NCBI GenBank assembly: GCA_031259085.1
Contig: JAIRMA010000041.1
Location: 1,116-65,115 of the forward strand
Direction: 5' to 3'
Source: Christensenellaceae bacterium
GTDB taxonomy: Bacteria; Bacillota; Clostridia; Christensenellales; DTU072
Length of the DNA: 64,000 nucleotides
This document shows, piece by piece, positions 1,433 to 27,716 of this stretch. The position numbers were made by a program, and so were the translations under genes. The notes under the pieces were generated by a model. That model made no database searches, was not told where the DNA came from, and saw only the letters and a list, made by a program, of their open reading frames with translations. Numbering within the stretch: the stretch's first letter is position 1; the number at the start of each line of letters is the position of its first letter.

Positions 1433-1493
1433 ACTATTTAAAAGCAATTTTACTTAATACAACGATATATTATTAAACTTTTATAAAACAGTT

Positions 1494-2441: not shown

Positions 2442-2479
2442 AAATTATATAAGTACGCAAATTTTAGGAGTACAGATAA

Positions 2480-7523: not shown

Positions 7524-8630
7524 ATGTTAATTGCAGCCACTTTTTTACAATCTGCTGGATATATCGCTATAGCTATTGGCGCATTGCTCGCAATGATTGT
7601 TATACATGAATTTGGGCATTATTTAGCTGGTCGTCTTTTAGGATTTAAAATTTTGGAATTTTCCATCGGCTTTGGCCCAGCCATATTTAAAAGGAAAGGT
7701 AAGAAAAATGGTGTGGTGTTTTCTATAAGACCATTTCCGTTAGGTGGGTCCTGTCAATTTCTATCAGAAGATGCAAGTAGTGATGACCCAAGTGCATTTA
7801 ACAATAAAGAGCCATGGAAAAGGCTTATAGTTTTATTTGCTGGTGCATTTTTTAACTTTATTGCTGCTTTGATTATAATTACACTCATATTCACATTTTA
7901 TGGACAATTACTTCCAACTATTTCAAATGTATACGACGATTCATCAAATAAAGAAATTCTATTAGAAGGCGATGCAATTTTGACTATCAATGGCAAACAA
8001 ATGAATATCGTAATGGCAGATGATTTTCAAGAGGCATTTTCTAATGTAAATAATACTGTTGAATTAGGTGTCTTAAGAAATGGTAAGATAATAAAATTAA
8101 CGTTGACAAAAAGTGAGTGTGTGCTAGGTTCCTATGATGAAAATGGTGTTTTTACACCTGAACTTGACGAATCTGGAAATGAGCAAACAGCATTCATGTT
8201 TGGCTTTACTAGTGCAATAACAGCACAGAGGCTAAACTTTTTCCATGCCCTTGGGCGGTCATTTTCTTTTTCATTCTTTCTAGTTGGAAAAATTTTAGAA
8301 GCTTTTGCTATGCTGTTTACAGGTAAAATTGGTCTTGAAAATGCTGGAGGTCCAATTACTACAATTTCGCTTATGAGCACAGCAGCCTCATCAGGATTCG
8401 CTGTTTTTTCTTATGTTATTTGTTTAATATCTGCAAATCTTGCTGTAATGAATTTAATGCCATTACCAGCACTTGATGGTTCGCGAATGGTTTTTTGTCT
8501 AATTGAATGGATATTCAAAAAACCCGTCAAAAAGAGCATTGAAGCAGCAATACATGTCACTGGATTCTTTTTGTTAATTGGATTTGCTGTCTTTGCTGAT
8601 GTGTTTAGAATATTTACAGTGGGACTTTAA
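7524..8630 (+). CDS. rseP: RIP (site-2) zinc metalloprotease, M50 family, with PDZ-like insert
   Basis: HEFGHY zinc motif in the first TM helix, a C-terminal NLMPLPALDGSRM motif, and a multi-TM architecture. Confidence 0.88.
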   Translation: MLIAATFLQSAGYIAIAIGALLAMIVIHEFGHYLAGRLLGFKILEFSIGFGPAIFKRKGKKNGVVFSIRPFPLGGSCQFLSEDASSDDPSAFNNKEPWKRLIVLFAGAFFNFIAALIIITLIFTFYGQLLPTISNVYDDSSNKEILLEGDAILTINGKQMNIVMADDFQEAFSNVNNTVELGVLRNGKIIKLTLTKSECVLGSYDENGVFTPELDESGNEQTAFMFGFTSAITAQRLNFFHALGRSFSFSFFLVGKILEAFAMLFTGKIGLENAGGPITTISLMSTAASSGFAVFSYVICLISANLAVMNLMPLPALDGSRMVFCLIEWIFKKPVKKSIEAAIHVTGFFLLIGFAVFADVFRIFTVGL

Positions 8631-8655
8631 CACTAAGCTAATTAAAGGATTTATA

Positions 8656-9684
8656 ATGCTAAAGAAGCGTATAAGTGTAAAAAATTTAATAATTGGTGGT
8701 GGGGCACCTATAAGTGTTCAGTCAATGACAAACACTTTAACAGAAGATATAAACTCTACTATTAAACAAGTTATTAGACTCGAAGAAGCCGGCGCAGATA
8801 TCATTAGGGTGTCAATTCCTAATTCTAAAGCTGCTGTAGCATTAAAACAGATTGTAAAAGAATCAACCGTACCAATTGTCGCAGATATACACTACGATTA
8901 TAAATTAGCGCTTGCATCAATCGAGGCAGGGGCGCACAAAATACGAATCAATCCTTCCAATATTACACATAAACAGGGACTTAAAACCTTAGCACGTGTC
9001 GCTGGAGAAAAAAATATCCCGATTAGAATAGGTTTCAATCAAGGTGCGTTCAAGACTCGAATTAGTATAGATGAATTAGTTTCAAGAACACTTGAAGCAA
9101 TCAAAGACATGGAAGATTATGGTTGCACCAATTTGGTGTTAGCAGTGAAATGTTCTGACGTTAACATAACCATTGCATCATATAGAAAATTGTATGGGTT
9201 AACAAATTATCCACTCCACATTGGGTTGACCGAAGCAGGTGCTGGTGAAACTGCTATTATTAAATCGTCTATCGCAATTGGCACACTTTTAAGTGATGGA
9301 ATTGGTGACACGATACGTGTATCTTTAGCAGGAGATCCAGTACGTGAAGTTTTGGTTGGAAAAAAAATTCTTCAGTGTGCTGGTATCGTTAAAGATTTTG
9401 TGGAAATTATTGCATGTCCGACGTGTGCTAGAACAGTTTTACCTGTGGAAAAAATCGCTATGGAATTGGAGAACATGACTAGAAACACAAAAAAACCACT
9501 TAAGATCGCTGTGATGGGTTGTGCTGTTAATGGAATAGGTGAAGCTGGAAATGCTGATTTTGGAGTATGTGGGGGAAAAACACAGTCACTTCTATTTAAG
9601 AATGGTGAGCGCATAAAAAATGTTATTAATAGTGAGATCACCAATGAATTGTTAAAAATTTTAGAGGAATACACGAATGAATGA
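8656..9684 (+). CDS. ispG: 4-hydroxy-3-methylbut-2-en-1-yl diphosphate synthase (flavodoxin)
   Basis: Contains GGGAPISVQSMTNT and RINPSN, and a C-terminal Fe-S Cys motif (ACPTCART ... MGCAVNGIGEA). I chose the ATG at 8656 after AAAGGA; the tracked 8578 start would add a non-conserved extension overlapping rseP. Confidence 0.9.
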   Translation: MLKKRISVKNLIIGGGAPISVQSMTNTLTEDINSTIKQVIRLEEAGADIIRVSIPNSKAAVALKQIVKESTVPIVADIHYDYKLALASIEAGAHKIRINPSNITHKQGLKTLARVAGEKNIPIRIGFNQGAFKTRISIDELVSRTLEAIKDMEDYGCTNLVLAVKCSDVNITIASYRKLYGLTNYPLHIGLTEAGAGETAIIKSSIAIGTLLSDGIGDTIRVSLAGDPVREVLVGKKILQCAGIVKDFVEIIACPTCARTVLPVEKIAMELENMTRNTKKPLKIAVMGCAVNGIGEAGNADFGVCGGKTQSLLFKNGERIKNVINSEITNELLKILEEYTNE

Positions 9685-11236
9685 TCACGATTACTTCATG
9701 TATCATCTTAATGCACAACTATTACCAGAAGAACGAATCTTAAAATTATCAAGTAAGACTCAAGACAAAAAAGGCGTTTGGTCCATATCATTCATTCTCA
9801 ATGCTGATGACTATGATGCTTATCTTAACGCAAATTTAAAGAATAAAGTAGAAACCATTGTACAGCAACTTATGCCGTATCAGCACGATGCTGTAATATC
9901 TTACGAGAAAACTATCACATCCGAGGATTATATATCACATCTGATTCATGACTACTTATATAGATGTAAACCTGTTTTATATACACAGGTTAGTAACGCT
10001 GACATCAAAGTAAAAATGAACATAAATAACGTGAAAATTGAAATGACCCTGGCTCCATTTTTATGTGATCATATGCATAATAGTGGAACGAGTGAAAAAT
10101 TAACTGAACTTTTAAATTCTAAGATTATTGAGGATGTAGAATTGGAATTTGTCCCTGACGAGAAAGGCGATCCTGATTATAGCACATATGCTAATACTTT
10201 ACCAATAATAAAAACTTCACACTATTCTATTAAAACCTCTCCATATAGAATTAGCAAACATATAATAAGCTCAGTCCTGCACGATCCACGAATAATTGGA
10301 GAAGTAAACAATAAAGAAGCTGACATGTGTTCAGTCGCAGGTGTGGTTTCTTATTTTAAACAATTCATGAGAAAAACTGTACCTCTCCCATTTTATGTTT
10401 TTAAATTAAACGATGGTTCAGCAGAAATTCAAGTGAAATATTTTCCCAAAAGCGAAAAACAGGCCGATTTGTTCACTAAACATGTCGGAGATGGATGTCT
10501 CTTGTGTGTTGAAGGACCGATTAGATGGGATACTTATTCTAATCTCTTTGCATTAACATTATACCGCGCCGCAGAATGCATCTTAGTTCAAGAGGAATCT
10601 GTGCAGGAAGAGAAAATCCCAGAAAAAAAAGAATTGCCCTTATCTTATGTCAATATCCATCCAAAACCTTATGAGGGTGATTTGCAACTCGATATGTTTA
10701 AGATTGCGGATTCTAAATCTAAAAGAGCTGATGAATTCGCAAAGCAAGATTTTGTAGTATTTGATCTTGAAACTACTGGGATTAAAGCATCAGAATGCTG
10801 TATAATAGAGGTTGGTGCTGCTAAGATCAAGTCCGCTAAAATTGTTGAAACATTTTGGTCTTTCATAAAACCTACCCATTCTATCCCGCCTGACGTGACT
10901 AAAATTAATTCTATAACTAATAAAGATGTTGAATTTGCTCCTTGGTGGGGAGACGTCGTAGCTGACTTTTACAAATTCACATTTGGTACAACATTAGTAG
11001 CTCACAATGCAAATTTTGATATGGCCTTTTTGCGAAACCAGAGTGAACCACTGGGCTTTCATTTTGAAAATCCAGTCATAGACTCTCTAGCTTTAGCTCA
11101 ATCTAAACTTGCTTTGTCAAACTATAAACTAAATACTGTGTTAGAACATTTCGGATTACATAATACTAAAGCTCATCGTGCACTCCATGACGCAATATCC
11201 ACTGCTAAAATGTTTATTTTATTATCACAAATGTGA
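9677..11236 (+). CDS. PolC-N-terminus-like protein: N-terminal region + OB-fold-like region + DEDDh 3'-5' exonuclease domain. No PHP or polymerase domains.
   Basis: The C-terminal ~170 aa carry ExoI FDLETTG, ExoII HNANFDMAFL and ExoIII HRALHDA. The middle segment (VAGVVSYFKQ...FKLNDGSAEIQVKYFPK...VEGPIRWDT) resembles the PolC OB fold. The gene sits directly after ispG with an 8-nt overlap. Confidence 0.7.
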   Translation: MNDHDYFMYHLNAQLLPEERILKLSSKTQDKKGVWSISFILNADDYDAYLNANLKNKVETIVQQLMPYQHDAVISYEKTITSEDYISHLIHDYLYRCKPVLYTQVSNADIKVKMNINNVKIEMTLAPFLCDHMHNSGTSEKLTELLNSKIIEDVELEFVPDEKGDPDYSTYANTLPIIKTSHYSIKTSPYRISKHIISSVLHDPRIIGEVNNKEADMCSVAGVVSYFKQFMRKTVPLPFYVFKLNDGSAEIQVKYFPKSEKQADLFTKHVGDGCLLCVEGPIRWDTYSNLFALTLYRAAECILVQEESVQEEKIPEKKELPLSYVNIHPKPYEGDLQLDMFKIADSKSKRADEFAKQDFVVFDLETTGIKASECCIIEVGAAKIKSAKIVETFWSFIKPTHSIPPDVTKINSITNKDVEFAPWWGDVVADFYKFTFGTTLVAHNANFDMAFLRNQSEPLGFHFENPVIDSLALAQSKLALSNYKLNTVLEHFGLHNTKAHRALHDAISTAKMFILLSQM

Positions 11237-11699: not shown

Positions 11700-12299
11700 A
11701 TGATGTCAACTCAATATTCACTGATATCCCCCATGCCATATCAAGATCAATCTGATCTTGATATAATTAAGTCTGGTCAATCTAAAAGGCCAAATAAATT
11801 TTTTCAAGAAGAATATGTGATCTTTGATTTTGAAACAACAGGCTTCAAGGCATCCGACTGTTGTATTATAGAAGTAGGCGCTGCCAAAATCAAATCTGGA
11901 AAAATTGTTGAAACTTTTTGGTCCTTTGTTCATCCAACTCACCCTATCCCACCTGAAATCACACGAATTACCTCTATTACAAACAATGATGTGGCGCATG
12001 CACCTTTATGGGAGGAGATAGTCCCAGACTTTCATAAATTTACTCTTAATACTACATTAGTAGCCCATAATGCTAGTTTTGATATGGCATTTTTAGAAAA
12101 GCAAAGCGAACCCGCGGGTTATTATTTTCGCAACCCTGTGCTAGACACTATTGCATTAGCTAAATCTAAAATTCATTTGACAAGCTACAAGTTAAATGTT
12201 TTGTTAGAACACCTCAATTTACATAACACAAATCCACATCGTGCACTTCACGATGCAATATCCACTGCTAAAATGTTCATTGTCCTATCTACGATGTAA
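11700..12299 (+). CDS. stand-alone DEDDh 3'-5' exonuclease (DnaQ/PolC-exo-like), tandem paralog of the C-terminus of 9677-11236
   Basis: FDFETTG, HNASFDMAFL and HRALHDA motifs, with RBS AAGGAG upstream. It aligns residue-for-residue with the last ~190 aa of the upstream protein and ends at the same position (...AKMFIVLSTM versus ...AKMFILLSQM). Confidence 0.85.
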   Translation: MMSTQYSLISPMPYQDQSDLDIIKSGQSKRPNKFFQEEYVIFDFETTGFKASDCCIIEVGAAKIKSGKIVETFWSFVHPTHPIPPEITRITSITNNDVAHAPLWEEIVPDFHKFTLNTTLVAHNASFDMAFLEKQSEPAGYYFRNPVLDTIALAKSKIHLTSYKLNVLLEHLNLHNTNPHRALHDAISTAKMFIVLSTM

Positions 12300-13460: not shown

Positions 13461-13891
13461 AACACCGACGCTAATTTTGGTGCCAAATCTAGTAAAAAAT
13501 TTGGTTTCGTTATAAGAAAACGGTTTTATTTGATATGGGATCAGGATTAATCGTTGATGTTTTTATAACATCTGTCAGCTACAAGATAAAAGCGGCAGAG
13601 CCAATATTACCTAAATCTGGAGCAATTGTTGCTGATAAGGGATATTTAGGGCTAAAACAAATGGCAAAGGAAAATGGCCTACATGCAATGGCAATTCAAC
13701 TAAGCAACATGAAGACACAAAATAAAGACTATGATAGATTCCTGACAAAACTCAGAGCACCGTATGAGAGTGTTTTTAGCAAAAGAGACAACTTAGAGCA
13801 AGATACAAAGGCAAAGAAAATAATCAAGGTGTCGAATATTTGGTCTCAAGTATCATATGATATGTCGAGGGCACTAAAACTAAATATTTAA
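13461..13891 (+). mobile_element. degraded IS5/IS1182-type DDE transposase remnant
   Basis: Fragments in shifting frames: DANFGAKSSKKFGF, then VADKGYLGLKQMAKENGLHAMAI...NKDYDRFLTKLRAPYESVFSK. This is the ADKGY and RxxxE..F pattern of IS5-family transposases. No intact ORF and no terminal repeats were recognised. Confidence 0.6.
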
Positions 13892-14163: not shown

Positions 14164-15189
14164 CTAGTCCTTTAAACACCCTATCGACACTACGAATACG
14201 CCATCGGAGCGACGGTAGGCGATGTCGGTAGCGGTCAACACCATTAAGAACACTGGATCTCTTTTTACTAACGATCGAAGCATTCTTAAGTTGTTTGCGC
14301 CGCCGTCAATTTCCCTGCTTCCCATTTTAACCTCGATCGCGCCCCAACGACTGTCTTTTAGTTGCACGACCGCATCGCACTCCAAGCCGTTCTTGTCGCG
14401 ATAGTGAAACACTTCGCCGTCTATCGCCTGTGTGCATACTCGCAGGTCGCGGACACATAACGATTCAAATAAAAGTCCGAATGTATTGAAATCTTGTAAT
14501 AACCTTTTCTGATTTACGCGAAGTGCGGCAGCCGCAATCGACGGATCTATGTAATGTCTTGTCGCCGTGGTTCTGATAGCGGTCTTTGACCTCAAGGCAG
14601 GATTCCATGCGGGCAAGTCCTCAATGACATGAATCCGTCTAAGGGAGTTAAGATAACTCGCGACGGTCGGCGCGGAAAGCGAAGCACCCTCGCTAACCAT
14701 GTCATTTCGAAGCGTTTCATTATTCGCCATAGACGCACTGCACCGCGCAAGGCTACGCATAAGCACGCGCATGGAATTAGGATTCTTTTCAACGCCGTCC
14801 ACGCGGTTTACGTCATGGTTGATAACCGCCTCGACATAATCGTAAACTCTGCGCAGTACGATATTCTCTTTTTCACCAATAGATTGCGGCCAACCGCCTC
14901 TTACAAGCGCATAAGCCAGTTCCTCTATCGTTAGCGATGAAAAGCCTTGTACATCATGTGCGCCGTCGAATAATGCTCCGAGACTAATTTGTCCGTTAGA
15001 TTCCCCCGATTCATAAAGACTCATAGTCCGCATTTTGAAACGTGATATTCTTCCAGTTCCCGTATGCAAATTTACGTCATCGAGCGGCACGGCGGAACCC
15101 GTAAGGATAAACTGCGCCGTATCCGAGCATTGGTCTACGGCAAAACGCACCGCGTCCCAAAGAATTGGCGTTGATTTGCACACATACAC
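14164..15189 (-). pseudogene. N-terminally truncated AAA ATPase with DUF4143 C-terminal domain (P-loop region missing)
   Basis: The ORF begins in the middle of the ATPase domain (...PILWDAVRFAVDQ....AQFILTGSAVP...GTGRISRFKMRTMSLYESG), so the Walker A segment is absent. An in-frame stop lies 6 codons upstream, and the methyltransferase remnant ends 28 nt away. GC-richer than the flanks. Confidence 0.6.
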
Positions 15190-15217: not shown

Positions 15218-16241
15218 TTAACGCCGACTTACTTTCCGTTGTGTGCTGTTCTTCAAAGAAACCTCGTCGAAAGCCGTTTTTATCGCTTTTGCCATCTCAA
15301 ACGCCAAATTGACGAGTACGGCGTTTCCAATCAATTTGTATCCTGTATCGATATCTTTGTAGTAAAACATAAAATCGTCTGGAAAGCCTTGAACTCGCGC
15401 GCATTCTCTAACCGTTAAACGACGGTATAAATGCTCTTTGCCATCTTCAAAAATATTTTTGTCCGTTGATGCTTTTGGCATAGTCGGTGCCTTTGGATGA
15501 ATTTGGCACTGTCTACCCGAAGCCTGCACCGTAAAAGCGGGTTCGTTCCATTCCGAACCCTGTTTCTGCTCATGAAAATCGTTGAAAAATTTCCCGTGTA
15601 GTATTCGTGATTAGCAACCTTACATTTATTTCCCTGCGTCTTATTATTATCTGCGGCGGTTAATGCGTTGTCGATCAAATCCGCAATGACATCTCTAAAA
15701 ACTGGCTTGTATTTATGCGGCTCTGGCGGCTCAAATTTAAGCTTTAGGTCTTTTCTGAACCCTATATAAAAACGCGCAAACGGTCTTGCTCTACCCCATA
15801 ATCGTTCACATTGACGAGAAAGACCTTTACATCTTAGCCCGTTTTGTCAAACTGTCAGATAATTCCTTGCACCGCCGTATTGTGCCTTTGCTAAAGCATT
15901 CCTTTTGCGTTTAGGCAAGAAAAAATTTAGGTTGTTTGTCTTTGAGAATACATACGTATTCGTAAAATAATTTTCCGCGTGGGTCGTCTATCCCGCAAAA
16001 GCGCATCAGCCTCGCTCCACGACTGGCAAGGAGGACCACCGATTATTCCGTCGCAATCAGAGAATTTATCACTCTCGATTATGCAAATATCGCCCTTTAA
16101 CAAGGGCTTAGTATGGTTCTTTTCATATGTTTCCCAAATCGTATCGTCGTATTCGTTCGCGGCGACTATATCAAATCCCGCTTTTTCAAAACAAAGGTCA
16201 AATCCGCCTGCCCTGGAAAATAAGCTTAATATTTTCATCAA
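15218..16241 (-). pseudogene. HaeIII-type (GGCC-family) DNA cytosine-5 methyltransferase, multiply frameshifted
   Basis: Three ORF fragments in different frames. N-terminal: LFSRAGGFD (motif I with G to R) and [11 protein letters not shown] (motif IV). Middle: [25 protein letters not shown]-terminal: [11 protein letters not shown]...[18 protein letters not shown]...[10 protein letters not shown] (motifs IX/X). A stop falls where the ENV motif is expected (KFFLA-stop). The fragments are colinear with my recollection of M.HaeIII. Confidence 0.85.
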
Positions 16242-16686
16242 TGCCTCTTATTGCTTAATGTTATTCCTTGTCAACTGTTAAGCCATATTATACACCGTGT
16301 GCGTTTTCAATATAGCATAATTAGGGCAAAAACACAATGTTAATATAGGGGGTGAAATGTAAAACTTGTATGAGTTAATTATCCATGTTAAGTGCAGTTC
16401 CTTAAGAAAATCCTGCACTAAACTTCAGACGCTTAAAAAAACTGCATTTAATATGAGAAAATAGATATTTGTTTCTACCTAATTTTGATTGAGAACTTCT
16501 TGCAAATTTTTCAATATTATGATATATTTTATATAATTATTTCTACGTAATGTTTTACATAGTATGTTTTTATTGCTCAGTGAAAGCTGTAGTTATTATT
16601 TAAATATGCAACCATTACTGTTTTCTTACTTGTTAAAAAAACGAATAATTCTAGACGCTTATTTGACAAACAGGAGTCCATTATTA

Positions 16687-19083
16687 ATGAGCAATACTAA
16701 CTTCAATAACGATAGATACAATTTGTTCGATTTTGCTAACGAACAATTTGAATATGAATCGTTGATTGAGGAAGAACCTGACGAACGTTTCGATATTCCT
16801 CCAGAAGGTGTATGCCGAATATTAATCACAAGTATGTTCAAAAACGTTGTTGGCTCTTTGCAGAAAGAAAAACGCAACAAAATCAATTCTCTAATAAATG
16901 AATTAAGTCAATTATCATACGTTGAAATCAGAACACGCCTAGGAACAAAAAATTCGAAGAAATTCAAAGGTATCCAGCCTGCAACGTTTAAATTTAGAAC
17001 TAGTCCCTCTGAACGCATTGTTTATATATACGGAAACGCTGCTAATGTAGACAATGTGCGCATATGCGATGGAGATATAATATTTCTCACTTATGTGGAA
17101 ATTCACGATCAACAGAAAAATGATGCCATTGATGCTCTTAAAGAATTAAGACGTGGGAATTTAACTTTTTTTAATATTGTAGACAAAATCAAAAATGACG
17201 TAGCCATTTGCTATCGTGATATGAATGAAATCGAGTTTATACAACCCGTATATTTTGCTGATACTAATCGTCCTATTCTATCAAGCTCACAATTGAAGCT
17301 TTTAAATGAAAAGCCACCTGTAATATTCAGAGGTAGCGCTGGAAGCGGTAAAACAATCTTGAGTTTAGAATATTACGAGAATTTATCTAAGTCAGTTAAA
17401 TCCTTAGTTTATATAACTTTAACTGAAAACATGCGCAAATACGCAACGGATATACTAGAGCGAAGCAAAATAATGAATCCAAACTGTGTCACTTTCAATG
17501 AATTTTGTGGTGAAAAGACGATTCGAAACAAAATATTAGAGAAACGACCAGAGCGATTTGTAGAAGTCCCTGAAAAGGTTAGTCGTAGATACCCTAATTT
17601 ATCAGTAAATAACGTGTATACGTATATTCGTGGTGTAATAAAGGGTGGGGTTTTAAATGGTGAGCGTGGAAAATACAGTGGTTTAATATCCTTTGAGGAA
17701 TGGAAAAACTATGCAAAAAAAGAACAACTCATAGATGAAGAAATTCGTGAGATATATTTAATTGCACAAGAATATCAAAAAAAACTAGAAAAAGAAAGTA
17801 GATATGATGACAACGACAGTGCTTTTAATTTACTTAAGAATCCACAAATTTATGATTGCATGATTATTGATGAAGTGCAAGATTTGACCGAAATACAAAT
17901 TTTGGCACTCGCAGAGTGTTGTCCTAGCCATAATCTTTACTTTTTTGGGGATCCGAATCAAGTAATAAATCCAACTATTGTTGACTTTGGTAAAATTGGT
18001 GGTATTTTTTATAGAAAACGTGAAAATATTTTAAATATAGAACCCAGAATCCCTCAACACGTTTTAAAAGAAACCTGGCGCTGTGGCCCGCATTTAATCG
18101 AATATATAAATAGTTTGACAAAATTAAGACAGCAATTTATAGGGAAACAAGATTATAAAGATGACGCCGACGAAAGATCTATGCGCCTTGGCTTAGATGA
18201 GAGCTATTGGGCTTGCTATGTTACAAACCCTGAAATTATATATGATGTCTTAGATTTTGCAAACCAATCTACAGAATGCATCATCATTGTCAGTGATGAT
18301 GCTAGTGAAGCTCGATTAGAAGAACAGCTACCATCTTTGCGTGGACGCATTTTTACAGTACAAAGCATTAAAGGGCTTGAATACCGCGATGTAATTATTT
18401 ATAATCTAATATCTGATAATGAACACTCATTCCGCGATATGCTTGATGGCAATGCAAAACGTAGCACCCATCATAGAATGGTGTTTAACAAGTATTATGT
18501 CGCATGCACGAGAGCCCAGGACAGAATTTTTATTTGTGAAGATAAATTATATGACGAAAGGATAGAAAGGCATTTTTTTACAGAACAGCACATTTTGCCA
18601 AATAATGATATAAGTGCCTTGAGAAATCTCATTAGCGAAACTAAAAATAGTGAGGATTGGATAAAAGAAGCCTTACATCTCAAGAAAGAACACCGGTATA
18701 AACAAGCTAAAGAAGCATATCTCCGTGGAAAGGATGAGTTTGGGGCATCTGTAATGCAAATTTATATAGACTATCAAAATACCTTAGATATTTGTAGTGT
18801 TAATGAATTAGAGTTGGAAAAATTAAAATTTGCAAAATTGTTTTTTGATAGTTGTGAATACGATGTGTCAGAAGAGCTTTTTGTAGACACTGGTGACGAA
18901 TGGGGTGCTATTCTTTCTCAGAAGTGTAACGGAAAAAAAATAGATAACGAAAAAGTGAGAAAGGCTATAAATTATTACTCGAATTTTAACAAGCAAGCTT
19001 TCATAAACATCGGAAATAGTGATTACATTGATACTGAAACAAAAAAAATTACGAAGCTAATTGCGGAAATTAAACAATTATAG
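16687..19083 (+). CDS. SF1 (UvrD/Rep-like) helicase with an extra ~190-aa N-terminal module and a helical C-terminal tail
   Basis: Walker A RGSAGSGKT, Walker B IIDEVQDL, then FFGDPNQ, ETWRCGP, TVQSIKGLEYRDVIIYN and YVACTRAQDRIFI. I chose the ATG at 16687, about 10 nt after AGGAG; the tracked 16564 start adds an implausible leader. Confidence 0.85.
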   Translation: MSNTNFNNDRYNLFDFANEQFEYESLIEEEPDERFDIPPEGVCRILITSMFKNVVGSLQKEKRNKINSLINELSQLSYVEIRTRLGTKNSKKFKGIQPATFKFRTSPSERIVYIYGNAANVDNVRICDGDIIFLTYVEIHDQQKNDAIDALKELRRGNLTFFNIVDKIKNDVAICYRDMNEIEFIQPVYFADTNRPILSSSQLKLLNEKPPVIFRGSAGSGKTILSLEYYENLSKSVKSLVYITLTENMRKYATDILERSKIMNPNCVTFNEFCGEKTIRNKILEKRPERFVEVPEKVSRRYPNLSVNNVYTYIRGVIKGGVLNGERGKYSGLISFEEWKNYAKKEQLIDEEIREIYLIAQEYQKKLEKESRYDDNDSAFNLLKNPQIYDCMIIDEVQDLTEIQILALAECCPSHNLYFFGDPNQVINPTIVDFGKIGGIFYRKRENILNIEPRIPQHVLKETWRCGPHLIEYINSLTKLRQQFIGKQDYKDDADERSMRLGLDESYWACYVTNPEIIYDVLDFANQSTECIIIVSDDASEARLEEQLPSLRGRIFTVQSIKGLEYRDVIIYNLISDNEHSFRDMLDGNAKRSTHHRMVFNKYYVACTRAQDRIFICEDKLYDERIERHFFTEQHILPNNDISALRNLISETKNSEDWIKEALHLKKEHRYKQAKEAYLRGKDEFGASVMQIYIDYQNTLDICSVNELELEKLKFAKLFFDSCEYDVSEELFVDTGDEWGAILSQKCNGKKIDNEKVRKAINYYSNFNKQAFINIGNSDYIDTETKKITKLIAEIKQL

Positions 19084-19095
19084 AGGTAGGTAAAA

Positions 19096-19551
19096 GTGCA
19101 AATGGATAATAAAGATGAATTTAGAACTATTTTAGACAAATTCGCTAAAACTATTGATGAACTCAATCAATTCAAAACACAAGCGGCTGAGGTTCTCGGT
19201 TCTATAGATATCATTGATGACACTGTAACACGTATGCTGTTATTTGGTAAGCGAATTCAGAGAACACTGACTGAGCACAAAAATTCGCAAGACGAATTAA
19301 AAAACACCCTAAACTCTTTCGCGGAATCTCAAATTGCAAATACGGAGTTAGAAATCAGGATCGAACCTGCTTTATCATCACTTACTAGTAGTTATGATAC
19401 GATCCTTACTAGATTAAATCAGTTAGAGAGTTCTGTTATAAAAATGCAAAGTGTTATAGAGCTACAAACTAAAGTCAATATTGAAATGATAACTACTATG
19501 CGTGAAAATTCAGAGCTAGTTCTATCTTTAAAGAGATATCTTGCAACATAA
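19096..19551 (+). CDS. small coiled-coil protein, operonic with the helicase
   Basis: 151 aa, starting 13 nt after the helicase stop behind GAGGTAGG. Heptad-like, Q/E/L/T-rich, all-helical-looking sequence with no TM segment and no recognisable motif. Confidence 0.6.
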   Translation: MQMDNKDEFRTILDKFAKTIDELNQFKTQAAEVLGSIDIIDDTVTRMLLFGKRIQRTLTEHKNSQDELKNTLNSFAESQIANTELEIRIEPALSSLTSSYDTILTRLNQLESSVIKMQSVIELQTKVNIEMITTMRENSELVLSLKRYLAT

Positions 19552-19873
19552 ATAATTGGTTTATTTAAAAATTAAAGATCTTGTTTCATTTAGGCTTAAG
19601 AAGTAGTAATAAATTTGTTATCCTTAATTTAATCGATATGTTCTATATTGTTTTTAAGAATTGTCAAGCTTTCTTATTATTGATTATGAAATTGTCTCTC
19701 ATCACATTTTATGATTTCAGCACTCTCTAGAACAATACATGAGTTGATAAATTTGCACATTACTCATTGCTTTTTTACAATTTTATAGTACTAACTTTAC
19801 CCTAATTCCAATCGATTTTTCCTTATAAAATCTAACCACAGGGGCTGTTTCCCCTCCTATTTTGGCATAAGTC

Positions 19874-20108: not shown

Positions 20109-23100
20109 ATGAAATTTATAAAAGTCCTTACATTGATTATCTTAATAGCGTTGTTTGCACTGATGTTAATTTCTTGTGCAGAGGAAAACGATCCTGGATC
20201 TCAGATTTACTATATTTCTTTTGATACCAATGGTGGAGAGGGCACTTTCCATCGCGTCCCTACTCTCGGCAATGCAACATTTTCTATGCCTGCTCTCGCC
20301 CCTAAACGAGATGGTTATGTTTTTGACGGATGGTTTTTTGATCTTGATCGGTGGGAACGTCAATTAACAGCAACTTCTCTACTGCTCGACCCAATTTATG
20401 CTAATTGCACTGTTTATGCAAAATGGACTTTTAACACGCCTTCTGAGCCAATTGTCGTAGATCCAACACCTCCGACATTGAATTTTGAGCTTCAATTAAT
20501 ATCAGACGGACATCAAAATGTGGTTCGTCATATTTCAAAAGCTGCAATTGAGGAACAAGACGTAAATATTTTTAGCAAAGAAGGTTATTTGCTAGAAGGA
20601 TGGTATCTCGACTCGAAATTTCAAGGCTCATCAGTTAGCTTCCCTTTCGACAACGGCGGAGTTTCTGGTTCGGTTACTCTGTATGCAAAATGGGAAATAA
20701 TTACATATACTGTATCATACACCATCCCGAATCCTAATGTTACAATTCTACAAAATATACCTGATCAACAACGTTCAATCGGAGAAGTCTTTGTACTCCC
20801 AGATCTTACCACCTCACAAGCATATTATGTAAATTATGTGTTTTCTGGCTGGATTACTAGCTCTAATGATACTGTATTAAAGGCTGGCTCTCAATATGTT
20901 TTTACAGAAGTACCTACTGCAAACAGAATTACTTTTATAGCTAGCTGGACTCGAACTTACACTGCCTCTTTCGCTAAAAAACCGGAAGATAATGTACTTG
21001 GAAATCTTCCTTCAAGTATTTCGAGAACAGCAGGCTCAGAATACTCTCTCCCAGTAATTGATCAAATTAATTTCTCATACACAAGCCATCGTTTTATTGG
21101 TTGGTATGATGGAGTAAGTTTATATAAACCAACTACTGCTAATCCAGTTACTCTTACAATGGACACGAATAACATCGTCTATTATGCTACGTGGGAGCCT
21201 TTATTTGGTGTACAATACCTATTAGCAACTGGATTATCAGGATCTATCCCTGATGCAACATATGCTGCAGGAGAATCTTTTATTCTACCTTCTGCCACAA
21301 ATTTGGCTCTACCTGGTTATGAATTTATTTGTTGGCAATATAATGAAACTAACTATTTTGGTTTGCAATCATTTGTTATGCCTGCCTATAGCCTGATTTT
21401 TACTGCATATGTAAAAGAAAAGGATACATATACAGTCAAGTTTGATGCTAACAACGGCACGGGGGATACACCAACAGTTTCAAACAAAATTGAAAATGAG
21501 TCATTCATAATTCCAGACAACCCATCGACTTTTACTCGCACCTATTATGCCTTTGACCATTGGTCATATTCAATAGGTCAGGAAACATACATCGTATATA
21601 CAGGTGGCACTGTAGTTATGCCTGCCGAAAATTTAACTCTTGTTGCAGTTTGGCGTGCGCTTGATTATGTTGTGACCTATGATTATGGAACTACTCCAAC
21701 TTTATATTCACCAATTGTTAACAATAACCCAACAACATATAATGCAGATCTGACTCAAGACATATCTATTGAAAAAATAGCATGTGAGGGTTATCTTTTT
21801 GCTGGATGGTACGAAGACTCCGCCCGAACAAAACTAATCGATGATCCTTCACTAGACGTCACCACCCCAAAATCTGTTACCTTTTATGCAAAATTTGAAT
21901 TTATAAAATACAAAGTAAACTTAAATGATGGTTTGACGGACAATGGATACTACATTGCAAATTCTGATTTTATTTTAATTGATTCAAAACAAAAGTATTT
22001 CGTTATCAAGTACGGTGATTACATATCTGATATAATAGCATCTATTTCTTTAACTCATCCTTTATATATAATAGCATACTGGGACTTTAATGGATCAGTT
22101 TATGCCCCAACAACGCGTTGGGCAAACGATGGAGACATAAGTTTAACTGCAGTTTGGACCGAACCTGGGAGTGAGGGACTTGCTTTCTTAGTTAATTCAG
22201 ACGGCAAAAGCATGAGAGTTAAGGCCTATAATGGCAGTGAATCTAAAGTCGTTATACCCTCATACTACAATAGCTTGCCTGTTACCACGATCGATATTAA
22301 TGCGTTTAAAGATAACACAATAGTGACTGAACTAGTGATCCCTTCTACAATAAAAGAGATATCATCTAGCGCCTTTGAAAACAGTGTGATTAGCGAATTA
22401 ACATTAGGAGATGGAATAGAAGTAATTGCCCCTGATGCTTTTAAAAATGCGCTAAGTCTAAAGCGGGTTTATGCTAGTACCAATACTAAAATTTCTACTA
22501 TCGGGAGCAACGCTTTTTATGGTTGTACTAGTTTAGAATATGTTTTCCTCCCAGCTTCTGTCCTGACAATTGGACAAAATGCCTTTGCAAACACATCTGA
22601 AAAATTGAGAATTTACATGTCAGGTATGGGAACTCAATCTGGCTTTGCCAGTGATTGGGCTGACCTTGATAATGTTGTTTGGAACGTGCGTTTGGACACT
22701 TCAAATTTAGTATATACTTTTAGCAACAAGACTGTTGTTATAGTGGGTTACATTGGCGACTCAACTGAGGTAATAATACCTAAAAAAATTCAAAGTCTTG
22801 ACGTTTCAGGGATTTTCTCTTATGCGTTTGCAAATAATCAATCATTAAAGTCAGTGACCGTTAATTCCCAAGTATCAGTTGACTCTTATGCATTTGAGAA
22901 TTGTCTCTCTCTATATGCAGTGATTTTTAATTCTGCGCCGACCAGTATAGACAAAACCGCTTTTTATAATTCAATAAATACCGTAGTATATGTAATTGGA
23001 AATTATATAGGAGAAAATCCTCACAATTTCTTTTATAATGGAATCGCTAGTTTATCTGATATCGTCATTGTTCAAGATGTGTATCTGTTATCTCTTAATT

Positions 23101-26100
23101 CATCATGTTATTTGACGAAATATTTAGGTGATGCTACGGACTTTCATACCAATGATAGCGCATTAACTTCCTATCAGATAGCATATATTGGAGATGGGTC
23201 ATTTGCTGGATCACAAATTACAAATCTTTATTTGTATCAAGATATAAATATAGGAGCAAATTTATTTTACGGAACTAAAAATAATGTGGTATTGAATTTA
23301 ATGACCACTGTCGACTTTGAGAAATGGAATTCAAAATGGAATATAACAAAAAATAGTGCAACGGTCACAATTAATTTTCCAACTGGCGGCACTTGGACAT
23401 ATTCTAATGATGGATCCTTAGCTTTAGAATATTATGAAAAAGATAATCAGATTTATATAACAAACTATTATGGAACAAATCACGATTTCTCAATTTCATC
23501 AGAACTAATTTCGAACAAGACAATTAAGGGTATCGTTGGCACATTTAATAGCAAAAATCTTGAATATATCTTTATAGATGCAGGAATATCAATTATTGAC
23601 TCATTCATGAGTAATCCCGAATTAGTCGTTGTAGCAAGTACTCCTGCACAAGGCAGCTACTTCAGTAGCATTGGTGTTAACTACTATCAATCATCCGTAC
23701 AACCAACACGCACTATCCTTGACAATGTCAATTATTATACTTATACTAATGGTACTACTTCCTTAGTAAGAGCAGTTACTAGTTCTACTACAATTACCGT
23801 TCCTACAAATTTGGGCATTAATAATGTTTCAGATTTTGCATTTAACACATCAACACTAATGAGAATAACCTTTTTACCAGAACACCCCGTACAAATTAAA
23901 ACAAAAGCCTTCTCTAGCAATCCTGGTCTCATTATCTACTATTCAAATGATCTCAATTTCACTGATAATGTACATCCAAACGCATATATCCAGAGCACTT
24001 TAAATGTATCTGATAATTCTTACTATTACACTGATTCTAATAATGATGTTGTTTTAGTGGATTTTACAGGCTCTGGTATTGTGTCATTGCCAAATAATAT
24101 TACAATAATAAAAAGTGGAACGTTCACAAGAGGTCAATCGATTAGCAATATTACGGTGCCCTGGACAGTTCATACATTCCCTCAGAGTGCAGTAAACTCA
24201 AATGTCCCAATATATGTTTATTCGACAAGCAACCCAGGATGGGAAATTTCTAATCCATTATATAAAAAAGAAGATTTAAGTTACTCATCTACCACAGAAT
24301 TTACTTATTTTGTCGAAAATTCCAAGGCTTATATCGTTGGTGCATCCTCTAATAACATTAATAATAAGAATGGGATTCTGACTATCCCAACAACGTTTAG
24401 CGGAAACACCGTGGCTGGAATATTAGATCCATTTGCATTAAATGCAAACGGTCTAGTTAAATTTTTATATGTGACACCTGCAAGTGGCTATTTCATTGGC
24501 TTGTTGAATTCCTTATCCCCTGATGCCGTTGTGATATTTGCAGGGCCTAACCAAAATTATTCTTTGTATGACTCAAATCCATCTACAACTAATTTGTTTT
24601 TTGGATTAACTTTAAAAACAGACCAGCCGGATGATGATGGCAATACATTAACAGGCTATTATGATAACAGCAATAACCTGATTGTACTCTCTTCATTGAC
24701 TGTTAACGCTGATTCATATAAATATGTTTTGCCATCCACTCTGAAGTTTATTTTACAGAACGCCTTGTCAAACACAAAAATAAATATACTTGTTGTCCCA
24801 TCAGGATGCAAAATTTCTGCAGGCTCTTTTGACAATGCCTATGTGGGAATGCGTATAATTATCGAGGATGATTTAGACCTAGATTATTCACAAATTTTCC
24901 CAGGCCGTATTATTTATGACAACACCAAAAATTCTGAAATCTTAGTATTTAATAATTTTATATATATAGTGAATCAGAATTCTATTATCATAATTGGTAT
25001 CTCTACTCAAAATTTATCTGACGTTGTCTATATCCCATTATCCATGCCTTTATCAACAAATTTATCTGGACTATATGTTCCATTGACTGCAATAGATAAT
25101 TATGCGTTCGATGCTTTTGATGGAGATAATGATGTAACGGTAATTTCTATTCCCTCAACAATAACAAATATTTATGCAAACTCTTTTGCAAGTGTTAGTG
25201 ATGTAGAATTGCAACTACAAGGAAATGTCTCATCTGATTGGGAGTCAAATTGGAATAATAATCTAGCGTATAAAACTTATTATGGTATAGAAAAAGATAA
25301 TTTCAAATTCTATGTTTCAAATCAACAAGCCTACATCACTTCATATATCACAACTATTCCTATGAGTGTTACAATTCCAGTTTCATTCGATGTTGATGGT
25401 AATACTTATTCTGTTGTTTCATTAGGAAGTGCATTTGCAGGATCAAAGACTCTTGAAACTTTAATTATAAATGCACAAATTACAGAGTTTGCAGATGCTA
25501 TAAAAGGTTGTACTTCTTTAACAACTATAGTCCTACCTGACAGTGTAACTAGAATACCTGATTATGCATTTGCTAATTTATCCGCATTGACATCTGTCAC
25601 AATCACTTATAATGGTCAATCTATCAGCATAGGCAATTATGCTTTTGCTAATCTCGTAAAATTGGAAACCTTAAGTTTGCCAGATATTTCTGCTCTTGGT
25701 ATTTATGTCTTTAGCGGGTGTAAGGCACTCACATCTTTCACAAGTTACCTCCCAAATGGTATAATAACGGACGGTTTGTTTTCTGAATGTATTAATTTGG
25801 AATTTAATTTGTATGGTTATGTTGAAATTGGGGCTTATGCGTTCTATAAAAACCAAAAATTTGAATCTATAGATATCCCAAATACTATAACATCCATAGG
25901 CGCTTATGCGTTTGCCAATATCCCTACATTGCTATCTGTAAATTTTTCAACAAATTCCTATTTATCGAGTCTGCCTTCTGGCATTTTTTCTGACTCTTTA
26001 GCACTTAGGGAGGTCGTCCTTCATGAAAATATAACAAAAATAGATTCTGCTGCATTTAAGAACTCTGTCAATTTGTCAAATATTACTCCCTTTAACCAAG

Positions 26101-27716
26101 TCACTATTATTGGTGATAGTGCTTTTGATGGATGCACCTCGTTGACCCTTTTAAATATTTCCGATGACCTAACATATATCGGGGCAAGAGCGTTCTTTGG
26201 TGTATATTACATGGGGGATGTTAAATTAAATTCAGCCGAATCAATTGGAGTAGCTGCGTTTGCTTATGCAGGCGTCAATAGTTTCATAATTATTAGTAGC
26301 CCCTATTACTCCGTAGATAATGGCGTTTTATATTCAAATAATACATTAATTCAATATCCAGTACTCAAGAGTTCTACTGCTTTGTTAGAATTATCTGATC
26401 TATCAGCTATTTCGCCTTATGCCTTTGCTGGAGCTAATTCTCTGTCAAGAGTTAATATCTCTAATGTCCCTTCAATAGGCGAATATGCTTTTACAACTGG
26501 CAATAGTTTGACTATTTATGCTTCTTATACTAGCAAACCATCAGGTTGGAGTGATACATGGGCTGACGCATATGTAACTTGGCTTAGCACTCAATCAATC
26601 TATTTTGATAACGGTTTTTCTTATCAATTAAATCCTGATAATACTCTTTCACTAATAAATTTCAGTGGGGATAATAAAATAACTATTCCTACTAGTTTTG
26701 ACGCAAAACTTATAACCTCAATCGGTGATAACGCATTTGCTAACAAAAACATGACTTGGATTAAAATAGAATCAACAATAACTTTTATTGCAAGTACAGC
26801 TTTTAATAACAATCCAAATTTAACTGTCTGGTATGCTGGGGATCCTGCTTATTTAACCTACGAAAAAGTATCGTCACATGAATTTTATACAGGTGCTAAT
26901 ACACTTACCCATAATGAAATCACAAGTATCGATGATGGTTATACATATTACTATTACAAGACGCCTTCTAATCAAGTTGTTTTAGTTAAATTATTAACAT
27001 CTGAGCTGTATTTAAATCTAAATGGTGTTATTGCCTCTGAATTGCATTTGTACCCATTTGTGTTTGCAGGAAGTTCTCTTCTTGCTATTTCCCTTCCAAA
27101 TGTTGTAGGAATCGCAAGCACGGCTTTCTCTGGAATATCACATTTGGTTGTGACAACTGCTAGCACTAAGAGTAGTGGATGGGAAACAGGATATGATAGC
27201 AATGCTACAATTCATCAAAATACTACGCCTACTATGGAATCAGATTATCTGCAATATGAGGATGCTGAAAATTTATATATAATAAGATATTTAGGCAATG
27301 ACAATTCTATTATTATACAAAACACGCAAACCGAAAAAAAGAAAATTATAGCGCCGTTTGCTTTTGCTAATATTTCTAGTATTAATGAAATAACAATTGT
27401 TGATTTTGACATCTCTGAGTATGCATTCTCTAATATGTCAAGACTTTATGCTTTCAAATTAATAACATCCTCACATGTAAATATTGGTAGTTATGCTTTT
27501 GCTAATTCATCTCTTTTACATACGTTTGTTATTTATGACACTAATAATAACTTGTCATTCAAGAATGCAACTGTACAGGATAATATATTTAGTGATTGTA
27601 TCTCATTAGTATCAATAACCACAGAGCATAACGGCACTGTCGATTGGTCTAAATTCTGGAATCGAATTAAAATGCAAACTTCATCTATGCCTGTACAAGT
27701 TTTGGTTAAAACTTGA
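20109..27716 (+). CDS. giant surface lipoprotein: Listeria-Bacteroides (Flg_new-type) repeats followed by many BspA-type leucine-rich repeats
   Basis: 2535 aa. The signal peptide has the lipobox LISC. The N-terminal third has repeated F(D/A)xNGG...GYxFxGW units. The remainder has repeated IPxxVxxIgxxAFxxCxxLxxIxl units (LRR_5/BspA-like). Confidence 0.85.
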   Translation: MKFIKVLTLIILIALFALMLISCAEENDPGSQIYYISFDTNGGEGTFHRVPTLGNATFSMPALAPKRDGYVFDGWFFDLDRWERQLTATSLLLDPIYANCTVYAKWTFNTPSEPIVVDPTPPTLNFELQLISDGHQNVVRHISKAAIEEQDVNIFSKEGYLLEGWYLDSKFQGSSVSFPFDNGGVSGSVTLYAKWEIITYTVSYTIPNPNVTILQNIPDQQRSIGEVFVLPDLTTSQAYYVNYVFSGWITSSNDTVLKAGSQYVFTEVPTANRITFIASWTRTYTASFAKKPEDNVLGNLPSSISRTAGSEYSLPVIDQINFSYTSHRFIGWYDGVSLYKPTTANPVTLTMDTNNIVYYATWEPLFGVQYLLATGLSGSIPDATYAAGESFILPSATNLALPGYEFICWQYNETNYFGLQSFVMPAYSLIFTAYVKEKDTYTVKFDANNGTGDTPTVSNKIENESFIIPDNPSTFTRTYYAFDHWSYSIGQETYIVYTGGTVVMPAENLTLVAVWRALDYVVTYDYGTTPTLYSPIVNNNPTTYNADLTQDISIEKIACEGYLFAGWYEDSARTKLIDDPSLDVTTPKSVTFYAKFEFIKYKVNLNDGLTDNGYYIANSDFILIDSKQKYFVIKYGDYISDIIASISLTHPLYIIAYWDFNGSVYAPTTRWANDGDISLTAVWTEPGSEGLAFLVNSDGKSMRVKAYNGSESKVVIPSYYNSLPVTTIDINAFKDNTIVTELVIPSTIKEISSSAFENSVISELTLGDGIEVIAPDAFKNALSLKRVYASTNTKISTIGSNAFYGCTSLEYVFLPASVLTIGQNAFANTSEKLRIYMSGMGTQSGFASDWADLDNVVWNVRLDTSNLVYTFSNKTVVIVGYIGDSTEVIIPKKIQSLDVSGIFSYAFANNQSLKSVTVNSQVSVDSYAFENCLSLYAVIFNSAPTSIDKTAFYNSINTVVYVIGNYIGENPHNFFYNGIASLSDIVIVQDVYLLSLNSSCYLTKYLGDATDFHTNDSALTSYQIAYIGDGSFAGSQITNLYLYQDINIGANLFYGTKNNVVLNLMTTVDFEKWNSKWNITKNSATVTINFPTGGTWTYSNDGSLALEYYEKDNQIYITNYYGTNHDFSISSELISNKTIKGIVGTFNSKNLEYIFIDAGISIIDSFMSNPELVVVASTPAQGSYFSSIGVNYYQSSVQPTRTILDNVNYYTYTNGTTSLVRAVTSSTTITVPTNLGINNVSDFAFNTSTLMRITFLPEHPVQIKTKAFSSNPGLIIYYSNDLNFTDNVHPNAYIQSTLNVSDNSYYYTDSNNDVVLVDFTGSGIVSLPNNITIIKSGTFTRGQSISNITVPWTVHTFPQSAVNSNVPIYVYSTSNPGWEISNPLYKKEDLSYSSTTEFTYFVENSKAYIVGASSNNINNKNGILTIPTTFSGNTVAGILDPFALNANGLVKFLYVTPASGYFIGLLNSLSPDAVVIFAGPNQNYSLYDSNPSTTNLFFGLTLKTDQPDDDGNTLTGYYDNSNNLIVLSSLTVNADSYKYVLPSTLKFILQNALSNTKINILVVPSGCKISAGSFDNAYVGMRIIIEDDLDLDYSQIFPGRIIYDNTKNSEILVFNNFIYIVNQNSIIIIGISTQNLSDVVYIPLSMPLSTNLSGLYVPLTAIDNYAFDAFDGDNDVTVISIPSTITNIYANSFASVSDVELQLQGNVSSDWESNWNNNLAYKTYYGIEKDNFKFYVSNQQAYITSYITTIPMSVTIPVSFDVDGNTYSVVSLGSAFAGSKTLETLIINAQITEFADAIKGCTSLTTIVLPDSVTRIPDYAFANLSALTSVTITYNGQSISIGNYAFANLVKLETLSLPDISALGIYVFSGCKALTSFTSYLPNGIITDGLFSECINLEFNLYGYVEIGAYAFYKNQKFESIDIPNTITSIGAYAFANIPTLLSVNFSTNSYLSSLPSGIFSDSLALREVVLHENITKIDSAAFKNSVNLSNITPFNQVTIIGDSAFDGCTSLTLLNISDDLTYIGARAFFGVYYMGDVKLNSAESIGVAAFAYAGVNSFIIISSPYYSVDNGVLYSNNTLIQYPVLKSSTALLELSDLSAISPYAFAGANSLSRVNISNVPSIGEYAFTTGNSLTIYASYTSKPSGWSDTWADAYVTWLSTQSIYFDNGFSYQLNPDNTLSLINFSGDNKITIPTSFDAKLITSIGDNAFANKNMTWIKIESTITFIASTAFNNNPNLTVWYAGDPAYLTYEKVSSHEFYTGANTLTHNEITSIDDGYTYYYYKTPSNQVVLVKLLTSELYLNLNGVIASELHLYPFVFAGSSLLAISLPNVVGIASTAFSGISHLVVTTASTKSSGWETGYDSNATIHQNTTPTMESDYLQYEDAENLYIIRYLGNDNSIIIQNTQTEKKKIIAPFAFANISSINEITIVDFDISEYAFSNMSRLYAFKLITSSHVNIGSYAFANSSLLHTFVIYDTNNNLSFKNATVQDNIFSDCISLVSITTEHNGTVDWSKFWNRIKMQTSSMPVQVLVKT

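Follow-up and report, generated by a model that had tools for sequence, protein, structure and literature searches.

The DNA analysed here, referred to below as the window, is a stretch of 64,000 nucleotides from a Christensenellaceae bacterium (GenBank assembly GCA_031259085.1, contig JAIRMA010000041.1, positions 1,116 to 65,115 of the forward strand). It contains a two-gene module that consists of a superfamily 1 (SF1) helicase of 798 amino acid residues (aa) and a small, predicted helical partner encoded directly downstream. The helicase combines three main parts: an N-terminal domain assigned by sequence profile and structure model to the RelE/ParE superfamily, a divergent motor of the SF1A type and an all-helical repeat tail. 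A putative anti-phage or abortive-infection role of the pair is plausible, because the distribution of the family is patchy, plasmids carry some of its members and defence genes are neighbours at some loci. The best explanation, to which we give an even chance, is a two-gene conflict module acting in defence or abortive infection, in which the SF1 motor and the repeat tail control a RelE-type RNase effector and the partner serves as a regulator or adaptor.

The helicase gene is located at 16687-19083 on the plus strand, stop codon included. The open reading frame (ORF), when counted from its first ATG, spans 16564-19083 (+) and would give 839 residues. The true start is almost certainly ATG 16687, giving 798 residues, since a GGAG sequence is found 11 nucleotides (nt) upstream and the 798-residue product is 100% identical to an NCBI protein (P0001) from a Christensenellaceae bacterium metagenome-assembled genome (MAG). 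Full-length homologues of the helicase were found at E = 0, with 68% identity and 98% coverage. Syntenic counterparts of the helicase-partner pair are present in a related contig from a MAG (loci L001 and L015, which denote one and the same contig) and in another assembly (L002). The pair is therefore real far beyond chance.

The protein chain begins with an acidic leader, aa 1-42 (16687-16812, +), recognized by alignment and composition, in which 12 Asp/Glu residues are found against 2 Lys/Arg residues. The leader is confined to the closest (Christensenellaceae-type) homologues and precedes the basic N-terminal domain; it was modelled by AlphaFold2 (AF2) with a predicted local distance difference test score (pLDDT) of 87-91 over aa 21-40. 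The N-terminal domain itself comprises aa 43-157 (16813-17157, +). The AF2 model of aa 43-161 has a pLDDT of 93.1, a predicted template modelling score (pTM) of 0.87 and the topology β-α-α-α-β-β-β-β-α. When this model was compared with the PDB by Foldseek, the top 50 matches belonged exclusively to the RelE/ParE superfamily, including RelE2, T. thermophilus RelE, YoeB, HigB, YafQ, ParE, Cami1 and Txp40. The match probabilities range from 0.63 to 1.00 (1.00 for the best), the target template modelling (TM) scores are mostly 0.5-0.7, and the highest query TM-score is that of Cami1.

The sequence profiles point in the same direction. A profile of the N-terminal domain, made from an alignment of 51 non-redundant homologues, matched the PDB sequences of the C-terminal domain of the Txp40 toxin (9e-6), aRelE (1wmi, 2e-4), RelE3 (3bpq, 9e-4), YoeB (4e-3) and E. 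coli RelE (0.3), and its hhalign comparison with E. coli RelE gave a probability of 72%. No Pfam family reached its gathering score in searches with single N-terminal domains, in which scattered sub-threshold matches to HigB-like (0.006), Gp49, ParE_like and YoeB models were observed. By sequence profile and structure model, then, the domain is assigned to the RelE/ParE fold, as had been supposed in the preliminary description of this DNA from the spacing of its residues. The NERD or other nuclease fold offered there as an alternative was rejected, every structural and profile match being of the RelE/ParE type.

The possible catalytic residues of the domain were compared with those of known toxins by hhalign, using RelE and YoeB sequences entered by hand. 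Residue R110 (codon 17014-17016) falls on R61 of RelE and R65 of YoeB, while K102 and R104 fall on K52 and K54 of RelE. R110 is retained by 85 of the 87 full-length homologues and H140 (codon 17104-17106) by 83 of them, and positions 91, 92, 102 and 104 (K91, K92, K102 and R104) are mostly basic. Residue H140 is located 2-3 residues past the last strand and may be the equivalent of H83 of YoeB. The overall conservation of these positions looks like an active site of the RelE/YoeB type rather than of the ParE type.

The full-length AF2 model, built on an alignment of the 87 sequences, has a pLDDT of 87.3 and a pTM of 0.84 and consists of the N-terminal domain (about aa 45-155), a linker, the SF1 core and the helical tail. 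The linker, aa 158-185 (17158-17241, +), is modelled with low confidence (pLDDT < 50) and is probably flexible. It is followed by the SF1A helicase/ATPase core, aa 186 to about 650 (17242-18636, +), which was delimited by its motif columns and by Pfam, PDB profile and Foldseek matches. Its motifs are Q202, the Walker A motif G216-T223 with K222, the DExQ motif with D395 and E396, the GDxNQ motif at 421-425 (D422 and Q425), R465, KGLE at 562-565 and TR at 608-609 (R609), and the SF1 motif columns are invariant or nearly so across the 87 homologues. The complete UvrD/Rep-like motor read earlier from the strings GSAGSGKT, IIDEVQDL, FFGDPNQ, WRCGP, SIKGLEYRDVIIYN and YVACTRAQDRIFI is thus confirmed, all of these strings having been found together with those quoted for the N-terminal part.

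The Pfam family UvrD-helicase (PF00580) matched the helicase with 45.6 bits against a cut-off of 23, and the UvrD_C models of Pfam remained below their cut-offs. A profile of the motor matched HelD (7.5e-12), PcrA (1.6e-11) and GajB (2e-10) in the PDB, and Foldseek returned PcrA, UvrD, Rep and HelD structures with E of 6e-11, TM-scores of 0.37-0.47 and 12% identity. The motor is a divergent SF1A motor of the UvrD/PcrA-like type. The C-terminal tail, aa ~651-798 (18637-19080, +), is predicted by AF2 to be an all-helical repeat of tetratricopeptide repeat (TPR) character, with helices over aa 655-797 at a pLDDT of about 90. Its profile gave a weak match to an engineered TPR protein (6e-4), and a Pfam search with the tail alone gave no match. 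In more distant homologues this short tail is replaced by TPR, ankyrin or Sel1 repeats recognized by Pfam.

The partner gene begins either at ATG 19102 (19102-19551, +; 149 residues), the form annotated by NCBI (P0115), or at GTG 19096 (19096-19551, +; 151 residues). It is preceded by a AGAGGTAGG ribosome-binding site, and its start lies 12 or 18 nt past the helicase stop, so that the small ORF with its own ribosome-binding site noticed earlier close behind the helicase is found as described. The predicted protein is helical or coiled-coil, poor in Pro and Gly, and has a conserved N-terminal amphipathic helix (DEFRTILDKFAKTIDELNQFKTQAAEVL). Scans of Pfam, PADLOC-DB and NCBIfam with the partner gave weak coiled-coil-type matches only (PADLOC DruC and LeoBC, E ~1e-3) and no recognizable antitoxin or DNA-binding family. 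A homology search returned the query itself only, which suggests that the partner evolves fast. Because of this result, kinship between the partners was established through gene position and alignment of the N-terminal motif, evidence that is weaker than a match to a hidden Markov model (HMM); an HMM of the N-terminus recovered nearer loci only.

The helicases related to that of the window fall into a partner clade and an ankyrin/TPR clade. In the partner clade, to which the window belongs, the helicases are 780-950 aa long in Bacillota, Tenericutes and Elusimicrobia and 1,250 aa long in Intestinibacter. A co-oriented ORF of 146-355 aa is found directly 3' of the helicase in 21 of the 22 loci sampled from this clade, the distance between the two genes ranging from -47 to +16 nt; the 22 loci include the window, and 16 to about 20 of them are independent after removal of duplicate contigs and syntenic loci. 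The exception is L007, where a 122-aa ORF (8454-8822) lies between helicase and partner. The sampled partners contain little Pro or Gly in their first 100 aa at least, and their N-terminal amphipathic helix can be loosely aligned. Their C-termini differ: membrane segments are found in L007 and L018, Pro-rich basic tails in L019-22 and L075, β-rich regions in L049, L059 and L087, and Sel1-like repeats in L024 and L029. The loci examined in the ankyrin/TPR clade, among them the gene of the Shigella plasmid pINV, have no conserved downstream gene; xseB-ispA follow the gene of P0024, and LysR-type genes are found elsewhere. The evidence supports the small ORF as a conserved, coupled partner and not a chance ORF. 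Since adjacent partners occur at 21 of 22 loci in one clade and none is conserved in the other, the two-gene module is real and clade-specific; the association of the small ORF with helicase homologues, which the preliminary description had named as a point to check, holds for the partner clade and fails for the ankyrin/TPR clade.

Two further observations concern individual loci of this group. In L022, two tandem partner paralogues are found at 3635-4778. In L007 a 794-aa helicase is accompanied by the 122-aa ORF, while in L018 a 940-aa helicase directly overlaps an identical partner; one of the two loci has probably undergone a frameshift or truncation.

The family as a whole is much larger than the group of close homologues. 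A word-indexed search of 5.8 billion proteins gave 114 relatives of the helicase, among which only five clusters are at least 54% identical to it (54-68%), with 1-3 member sequences apiece. The N-domain profile, compared with 1.84 billion representative sequences, recovered 863 clusters (50% identity) at E <= 1e-3, most of them 780-1,250 aa long and hence helicase fusions. In the species genomes of GTDB at least 189 relatives were confirmed among the first 600 pattern matches, and they belong to Bacillota, Tenericutes, Elusimicrobia, Fusobacteriota, Bacteroidota, Pseudomonadota, Verrucomicrobiota and other phyla. Plasmid-borne members are found on Bacillus plasmids and on Shigella pINV (101 Shigella plasmid records). 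In the single Shigella flexneri plasmid examined (NZ_CP020343.1, L095 5536-8448), the ankyrin-type member WP_011114777.1 has 970 aa, its N-terminal domain matches the family profile at 1e-13, and its gene adjoins the virulence genes virK, lpxM and ospG.

The neighbourhoods of the partner-clade loci are mixed, with some defence genes and many housekeeping genes. This result rests on 136 neighbours at 16 loci, called by a simple ORF finder and scanned with pooled PADLOC and Pfam searches, which give counts without positions and hence a rough measure of enrichment. Defence genes or their remnants were found next to the pair at four loci. One of these is the window itself, with a PDC-S01 remnant and a dead C5 methylase; L009 adjoins a type I restriction-modification (R-M) system and L011 a Mokosh-like helicase. 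In L061 (140-9611, Paenibacillus sp. 2TAB19) the pair is followed, co-oriented and tightly spaced, by three defence-type genes encoding a TOTE-like TPR protein with a cold-shock OB domain (9e-60), a PDC-M16A RecD-like helicase (2e-183) and a GajB-like UvrD helicase (1e-57). This locus may be a larger composite defence operon. The genomic context also changes over short evolutionary distances: the homologue with 68% identity shares synteny with the window, while the one with 61% identity is found in a different context.

It is important to compare the helicase with the defence systems already described. The preliminary description had stated that it resembles no known helicase system. That statement has to be toned down, as ArmD of ARMADA type II likewise consists of a RelE-like domain fused to a UvrD-like helicase, according to the report on that system (bioRxiv 2025, PMC12458937). 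The same report shows ArmD to be required for phage defence by ARMADA type II and the Walker A mutant K266A to abolish protection (PMC12458937). For comparison, the sequence of ArmD from E. coli NCTC 12900 (WP_000218177.1) was fetched from an E. coli O157:H7 genome. Its N-terminal domain aligns with the family N-domain profile over the full length, including the conserved Arg and the His-Asp pair (E = 3e-6 in a three-sequence search), and the two motors share 24% identity in BLASTP over 244 residues, aa 195-438 (E = 7e-6). ArmD, one of the four ARMADA proteins, is the closest known relative of the helicase.

The differences are also considerable. ArmD has 704 aa, without the helical tail and without a coiled-coil partner, and its motor is strongly GajB-like (PADLOC 2e-36), while the helicase of the window reaches 1e-7. 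It belongs to a four-gene operon with ArmA, ArmB and ArmC, so that a BrxHII-like helicase, a PglX-like methyltransferase and a YprA-like helicase accompany it; in the E. coli operon, proteins of about 950, 1,640 and 2,110 aa are encoded upstream of ArmD. The only other window ORFs of at least 750 aa encode a 2,535-aa surface protein of the LRR/Flg_new type and an unassigned 752-aa protein. Membership of ARMADA was ruled out, as ArmA, ArmB and ArmC are all absent from the window.

The toxins RelE, YoeB, HigB and YafQ, and the CARF-RelE protein Cami1, have the fold, topology and profile similarity in common with the N-terminal domain. However, the RelE-type toxins stand alone with about 90 aa, while the domain of the window is fused to a helicase part of about 640 aa and, by manual alignment, has a 12-residue hairpin insertion relative to them. 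Cami1 demonstrates that a RelE-type domain can work though fused to a large sensor domain. In contrast to type II toxin-antitoxin (TA) systems, the pair has no classical antitoxin bearing a DNA-binding domain. GajB of Gabija is also a defence protein with a UvrD-like SF1A motor, to which the helicase gives weak and partial matches in PADLOC (28.9 bits) and in the PDB, but GajB, known from solved structures and about 494-499 aa long, has neither a RelE-like domain nor the tail. No match to GajA, OLD or TOPRIM was found among the window ORFs scanned (ten ORFs with PADLOC and others with Pfam, leaving out the ORFs at 200-4694 and those beyond 36.5 kb), and Gabija was ruled out on the absence of GajA among them.

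The CnuH helicases of CoCoNuT types II and III-A also combine an SF1 helicase with a fused domain, termed RTL, that is RelE/colicin D-like (PMC11090510), and CoCoNuT is predicted to be an RNA-targeting defence that has coiled-coil components too (PMC11090510). Compared by description only, CnuH differs in having an Upf1-like (SF1B) motor and in its place within McrBC-type operons with HEPN nucleases, none of which is found here. Nhi gave no match, the C3a187 NERD+UvrD model touching only the Walker A region (aa 254-316 in the 839-aa numbering, 21 bits). HelD, PcrA and UvrD are the best profile and structure matches of the motor, but at the low TM-scores and identity given above, and HelD has an N-terminal secondary-channel domain where the present helicase has a RelE-like domain. 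The NCBIfam model motor_HelR scored 12.5 bits against a cut-off of 750. This score, the rarity of close homologues, the patchy taxonomy and the changing context rule out a housekeeping HelD or PcrA, the possibility that the preliminary description had named as fatal to its proposal. Literature searches gave nothing on the helicase-partner family or on the Shigella pINV gene, while searches by architecture yielded ArmD and CnuH; we have come across no description of the two-gene form in which the helicase bears a TPR-like tail and is paired with a coiled-coil partner.

The analysis shows the fold of the N-terminal domain, ATPase motifs that are intact, a conserved set of Arg, His and basic residues, and a partner that is both conserved and coupled. 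For the conflict module we propose the following mechanism, in which RNase activity, ribosome dependence, trigger, partner role and phage connection are all inferred. The UvrD-like SF1A ATPase and the TPR-like tail would act as a sensor or switch that engages nucleic acid or protein derived from an invader, putatively a phage, as the trigger. Binding of ATP or translocation might then release the RelE-like domain, which is tethered by the flexible linker of about 30 aa. Once released, the domain could act as an RNase and cleave mRNA, most likely when bound to the ribosome, as RelE, YoeB, HigB and Cami1 do, and this cleavage would lead to translation arrest. The translationally coupled helical partner may bind the helicase through its conserved N-terminal helix. 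It might either restrain the nuclease, in the manner of an antitoxin, or supply localization or sensing through its variable C-terminus.

Several results weigh against this proposal. The Foldseek E-values of the N-terminal domain are modest (1.5e-3 at best) and its identity to known toxins is 9-17%. The proposed equivalence of H140 and YoeB H83 comes from an ungapped manual alignment of GDIIFLTYVEIHD with DDSLLIAACRYHY and from the topology, rather than from an alignment program. PADLOC-DB 2.0.0 has no specific model for either gene, the helicase giving only the weak partial GajB matches, and no relative of the helicase was found in the phage genomes searched. Enrichment in defence islands is modest, roughly 4 of about 17 loci with the window counted, and many of the neighbours are housekeeping genes such as those for tRNA synthetases, ABC transporters and antiporters. 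Finally, the mechanism of ARMADA is reported as direct and non-abortive (PMC12458937). Because of this, and because the RelE-like domain is not examined in the part of that report available here, the precedent does not establish a suicide-RNase role for such a domain.

The same gene pair could be regarded as a selfish module of the TA or addiction type without a dedicated phage trigger. The RelE-like domain would be the toxin, the partner (and perhaps the acidic leader) a labile antitoxin in a reversed, HigBA-like gene order, and the helicase would modulate or target the toxin. The RelE-family fold, the tight coupling of a small downstream gene, the presence of members on plasmids including Shigella pINV and those of Bacillus, and the fast evolution of the partner suggested by its homology search are all in agreement with such a module. 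However, the partner has no recognizable DNA-binding antitoxin domain, and the partners vary in length from 146 to 355 aa, with very diverse C-termini that include membrane segments. The large ankyrin/TPR clade, the pINV gene included, lacks a conserved partner altogether, and a simple TA pair needs no conserved ATPase of about 450 aa. This explanation is considered unlikely. A further explanation makes the RelE-like domain a non-catalytic adaptor binding RNA, the ribosome or gyrase, and the whole protein an accessory factor for remodelling nucleic acids, comparable to HelD on RNA polymerase or to Upf1 in mRNA surveillance, and not an immune effector. The ParE-type members of the RelE/ParE fold are not RNases, HelD and PcrA are the closest solved motors by sequence profile, many neighbourhoods are of the housekeeping kind, and ARMADA is reported to act non-abortively. 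Against this adaptor role, the constellation of basic residues and His stands at the catalytic positions of RelE and YoeB with near-universal conservation, the HelD/HelR family is unmatched by the score given above, the distribution is very patchy with rare close homologues, and the context varies even among homologues 61-68% identical. A role of this kind therefore appears quite unlikely.

The likeness to ArmD in both the N-domain family and the UvrD-like motor, together with the dead C5 methylase and the truncated ATPase immediately upstream, could also mean that the helicase is the orphaned ArmD-like component of a larger, decayed multi-gene system of the ARMADA type. The dead genes, however, differ from the pair in GC content (43-47% against 33%) and lie on the opposite strand, and they are not of the ArmA, ArmB or ArmC types, ArmB being a PglX-like N6 methyltransferase of about 1,640 aa. 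The helicase-partner pair recurs by itself in many lineages, over 244 aa the motor shares only 24% identity with that of ArmD, and the tail is missing from ArmD. Such an origin is very improbable.

The conflict module may in turn be part of something broader. It is conceivable, and put forward here tentatively, that the relatives form a widespread and unrecognized family of self-contained immune proteins, in which a ribosome-targeting RelE-like RNase is gated by an ATP-driven SF1 motor of the UvrD type with a repeat-domain sensor, ArmD being a recruited offshoot and not the prototype. In one clade, sensing or localization would have passed to a hypervariable coiled-coil partner. If the pair is active, just two genes would suffice to link a DNA/RNA motor with a translation-arresting nuclease of the RelE type in a compact system, which would reveal how fused toxin domains stay silent and are then released. 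It would also suggest, for the RelE-like domain of ArmD in ARMADA, a role that can be tested, and assign a function to relatives in many phyla, including the conserved gene of Shigella pINV, and the hypervariable partner could show a new way to sense with or to localize such effectors. If the domain is inactive or non-catalytic, the case would be one of a toxin fold re-used on a helicase as an adaptor for RNA or the ribosome.

The immediate surroundings of the pair contain possible transcription signals. Two promoter-like sites, TTGCAA-17-TATATT with a TG extension and TTTTCA-18-TATAAT, are found upstream of the helicase at 16500-16537 (+); they are pattern matches only, the consensus scan in this AT-rich DNA having given 29 sites against 18.6 expected. 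A terminator-like hairpin with a T-run is located about 290 nt past the partner stop at 19840-19865 (+), again as a pattern match only, from a scan with 3 found against 2.1 expected.

The GC content of the pair is 33-35%, the same as the window background, while the stretch at 14-16.2 kb on its left has 43-47% against a background of about 33%. This stretch contains a C5 DNA methylase that is split into two or more pieces (15218-16241, minus strand) and an ATPase of the DUF4143/PDC-S01 type (14164-15189, minus strand) that is missing about 90 N-terminal residues. The earlier contrast between an intact, AT-rich pair and degraded R-M and ATPase genes to its left is therefore borne out. The 118-aa ORF at 13535-13891, described with them as an insertion sequence (IS) remnant, has no Pfam match at E <= 1e-3 and is at most a putative transposase fragment. 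An intact AAA_14/DUF4143 gene was also observed immediately 5' of the related helicase in L007.

To the left of the degraded patch are the housekeeping genes uppS, cdsA, dxr, the gene of an M50 protease and ispG. To the right of the pair, at 20109-27716, is the ORF of 2,535 aa, whose N-terminus is signal-peptide-like. Its syntenic homologues 3' of the related pair in L001 and L002 contain LRR_5 (BspA-type) and Flg_new repeats by Pfam, and the assignment of the window ORF to this type rests on these homologues and not on the window copy. The helicase-partner module thus occupies a small variable patch flanked by core genes.

Other features were noted farther from the pair. A scan of the whole window against Rfam matched no RNA family, rRNA included. 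Directly after the uppS-cdsA-dxr-M50 protease-ispG genes, at 9677-11236, a protein of 519 aa is encoded with an OB fold and a DEDDh (RNase_T) exonuclease domain and without a polymerase domain; in many Bacillota this position is occupied by polC. It is followed at 11700-12299 by a paralogous stand-alone DEDDh exonuclease of 199 aa, and both proteins match the PADLOC DEDDh and PDC-S48 models at the domain level. Near the end of the window, at 58500-64000, the GC content rises to 49-56% against the background of about 33% and several minus-strand ORFs are found, and this region may be another horizontally acquired block.

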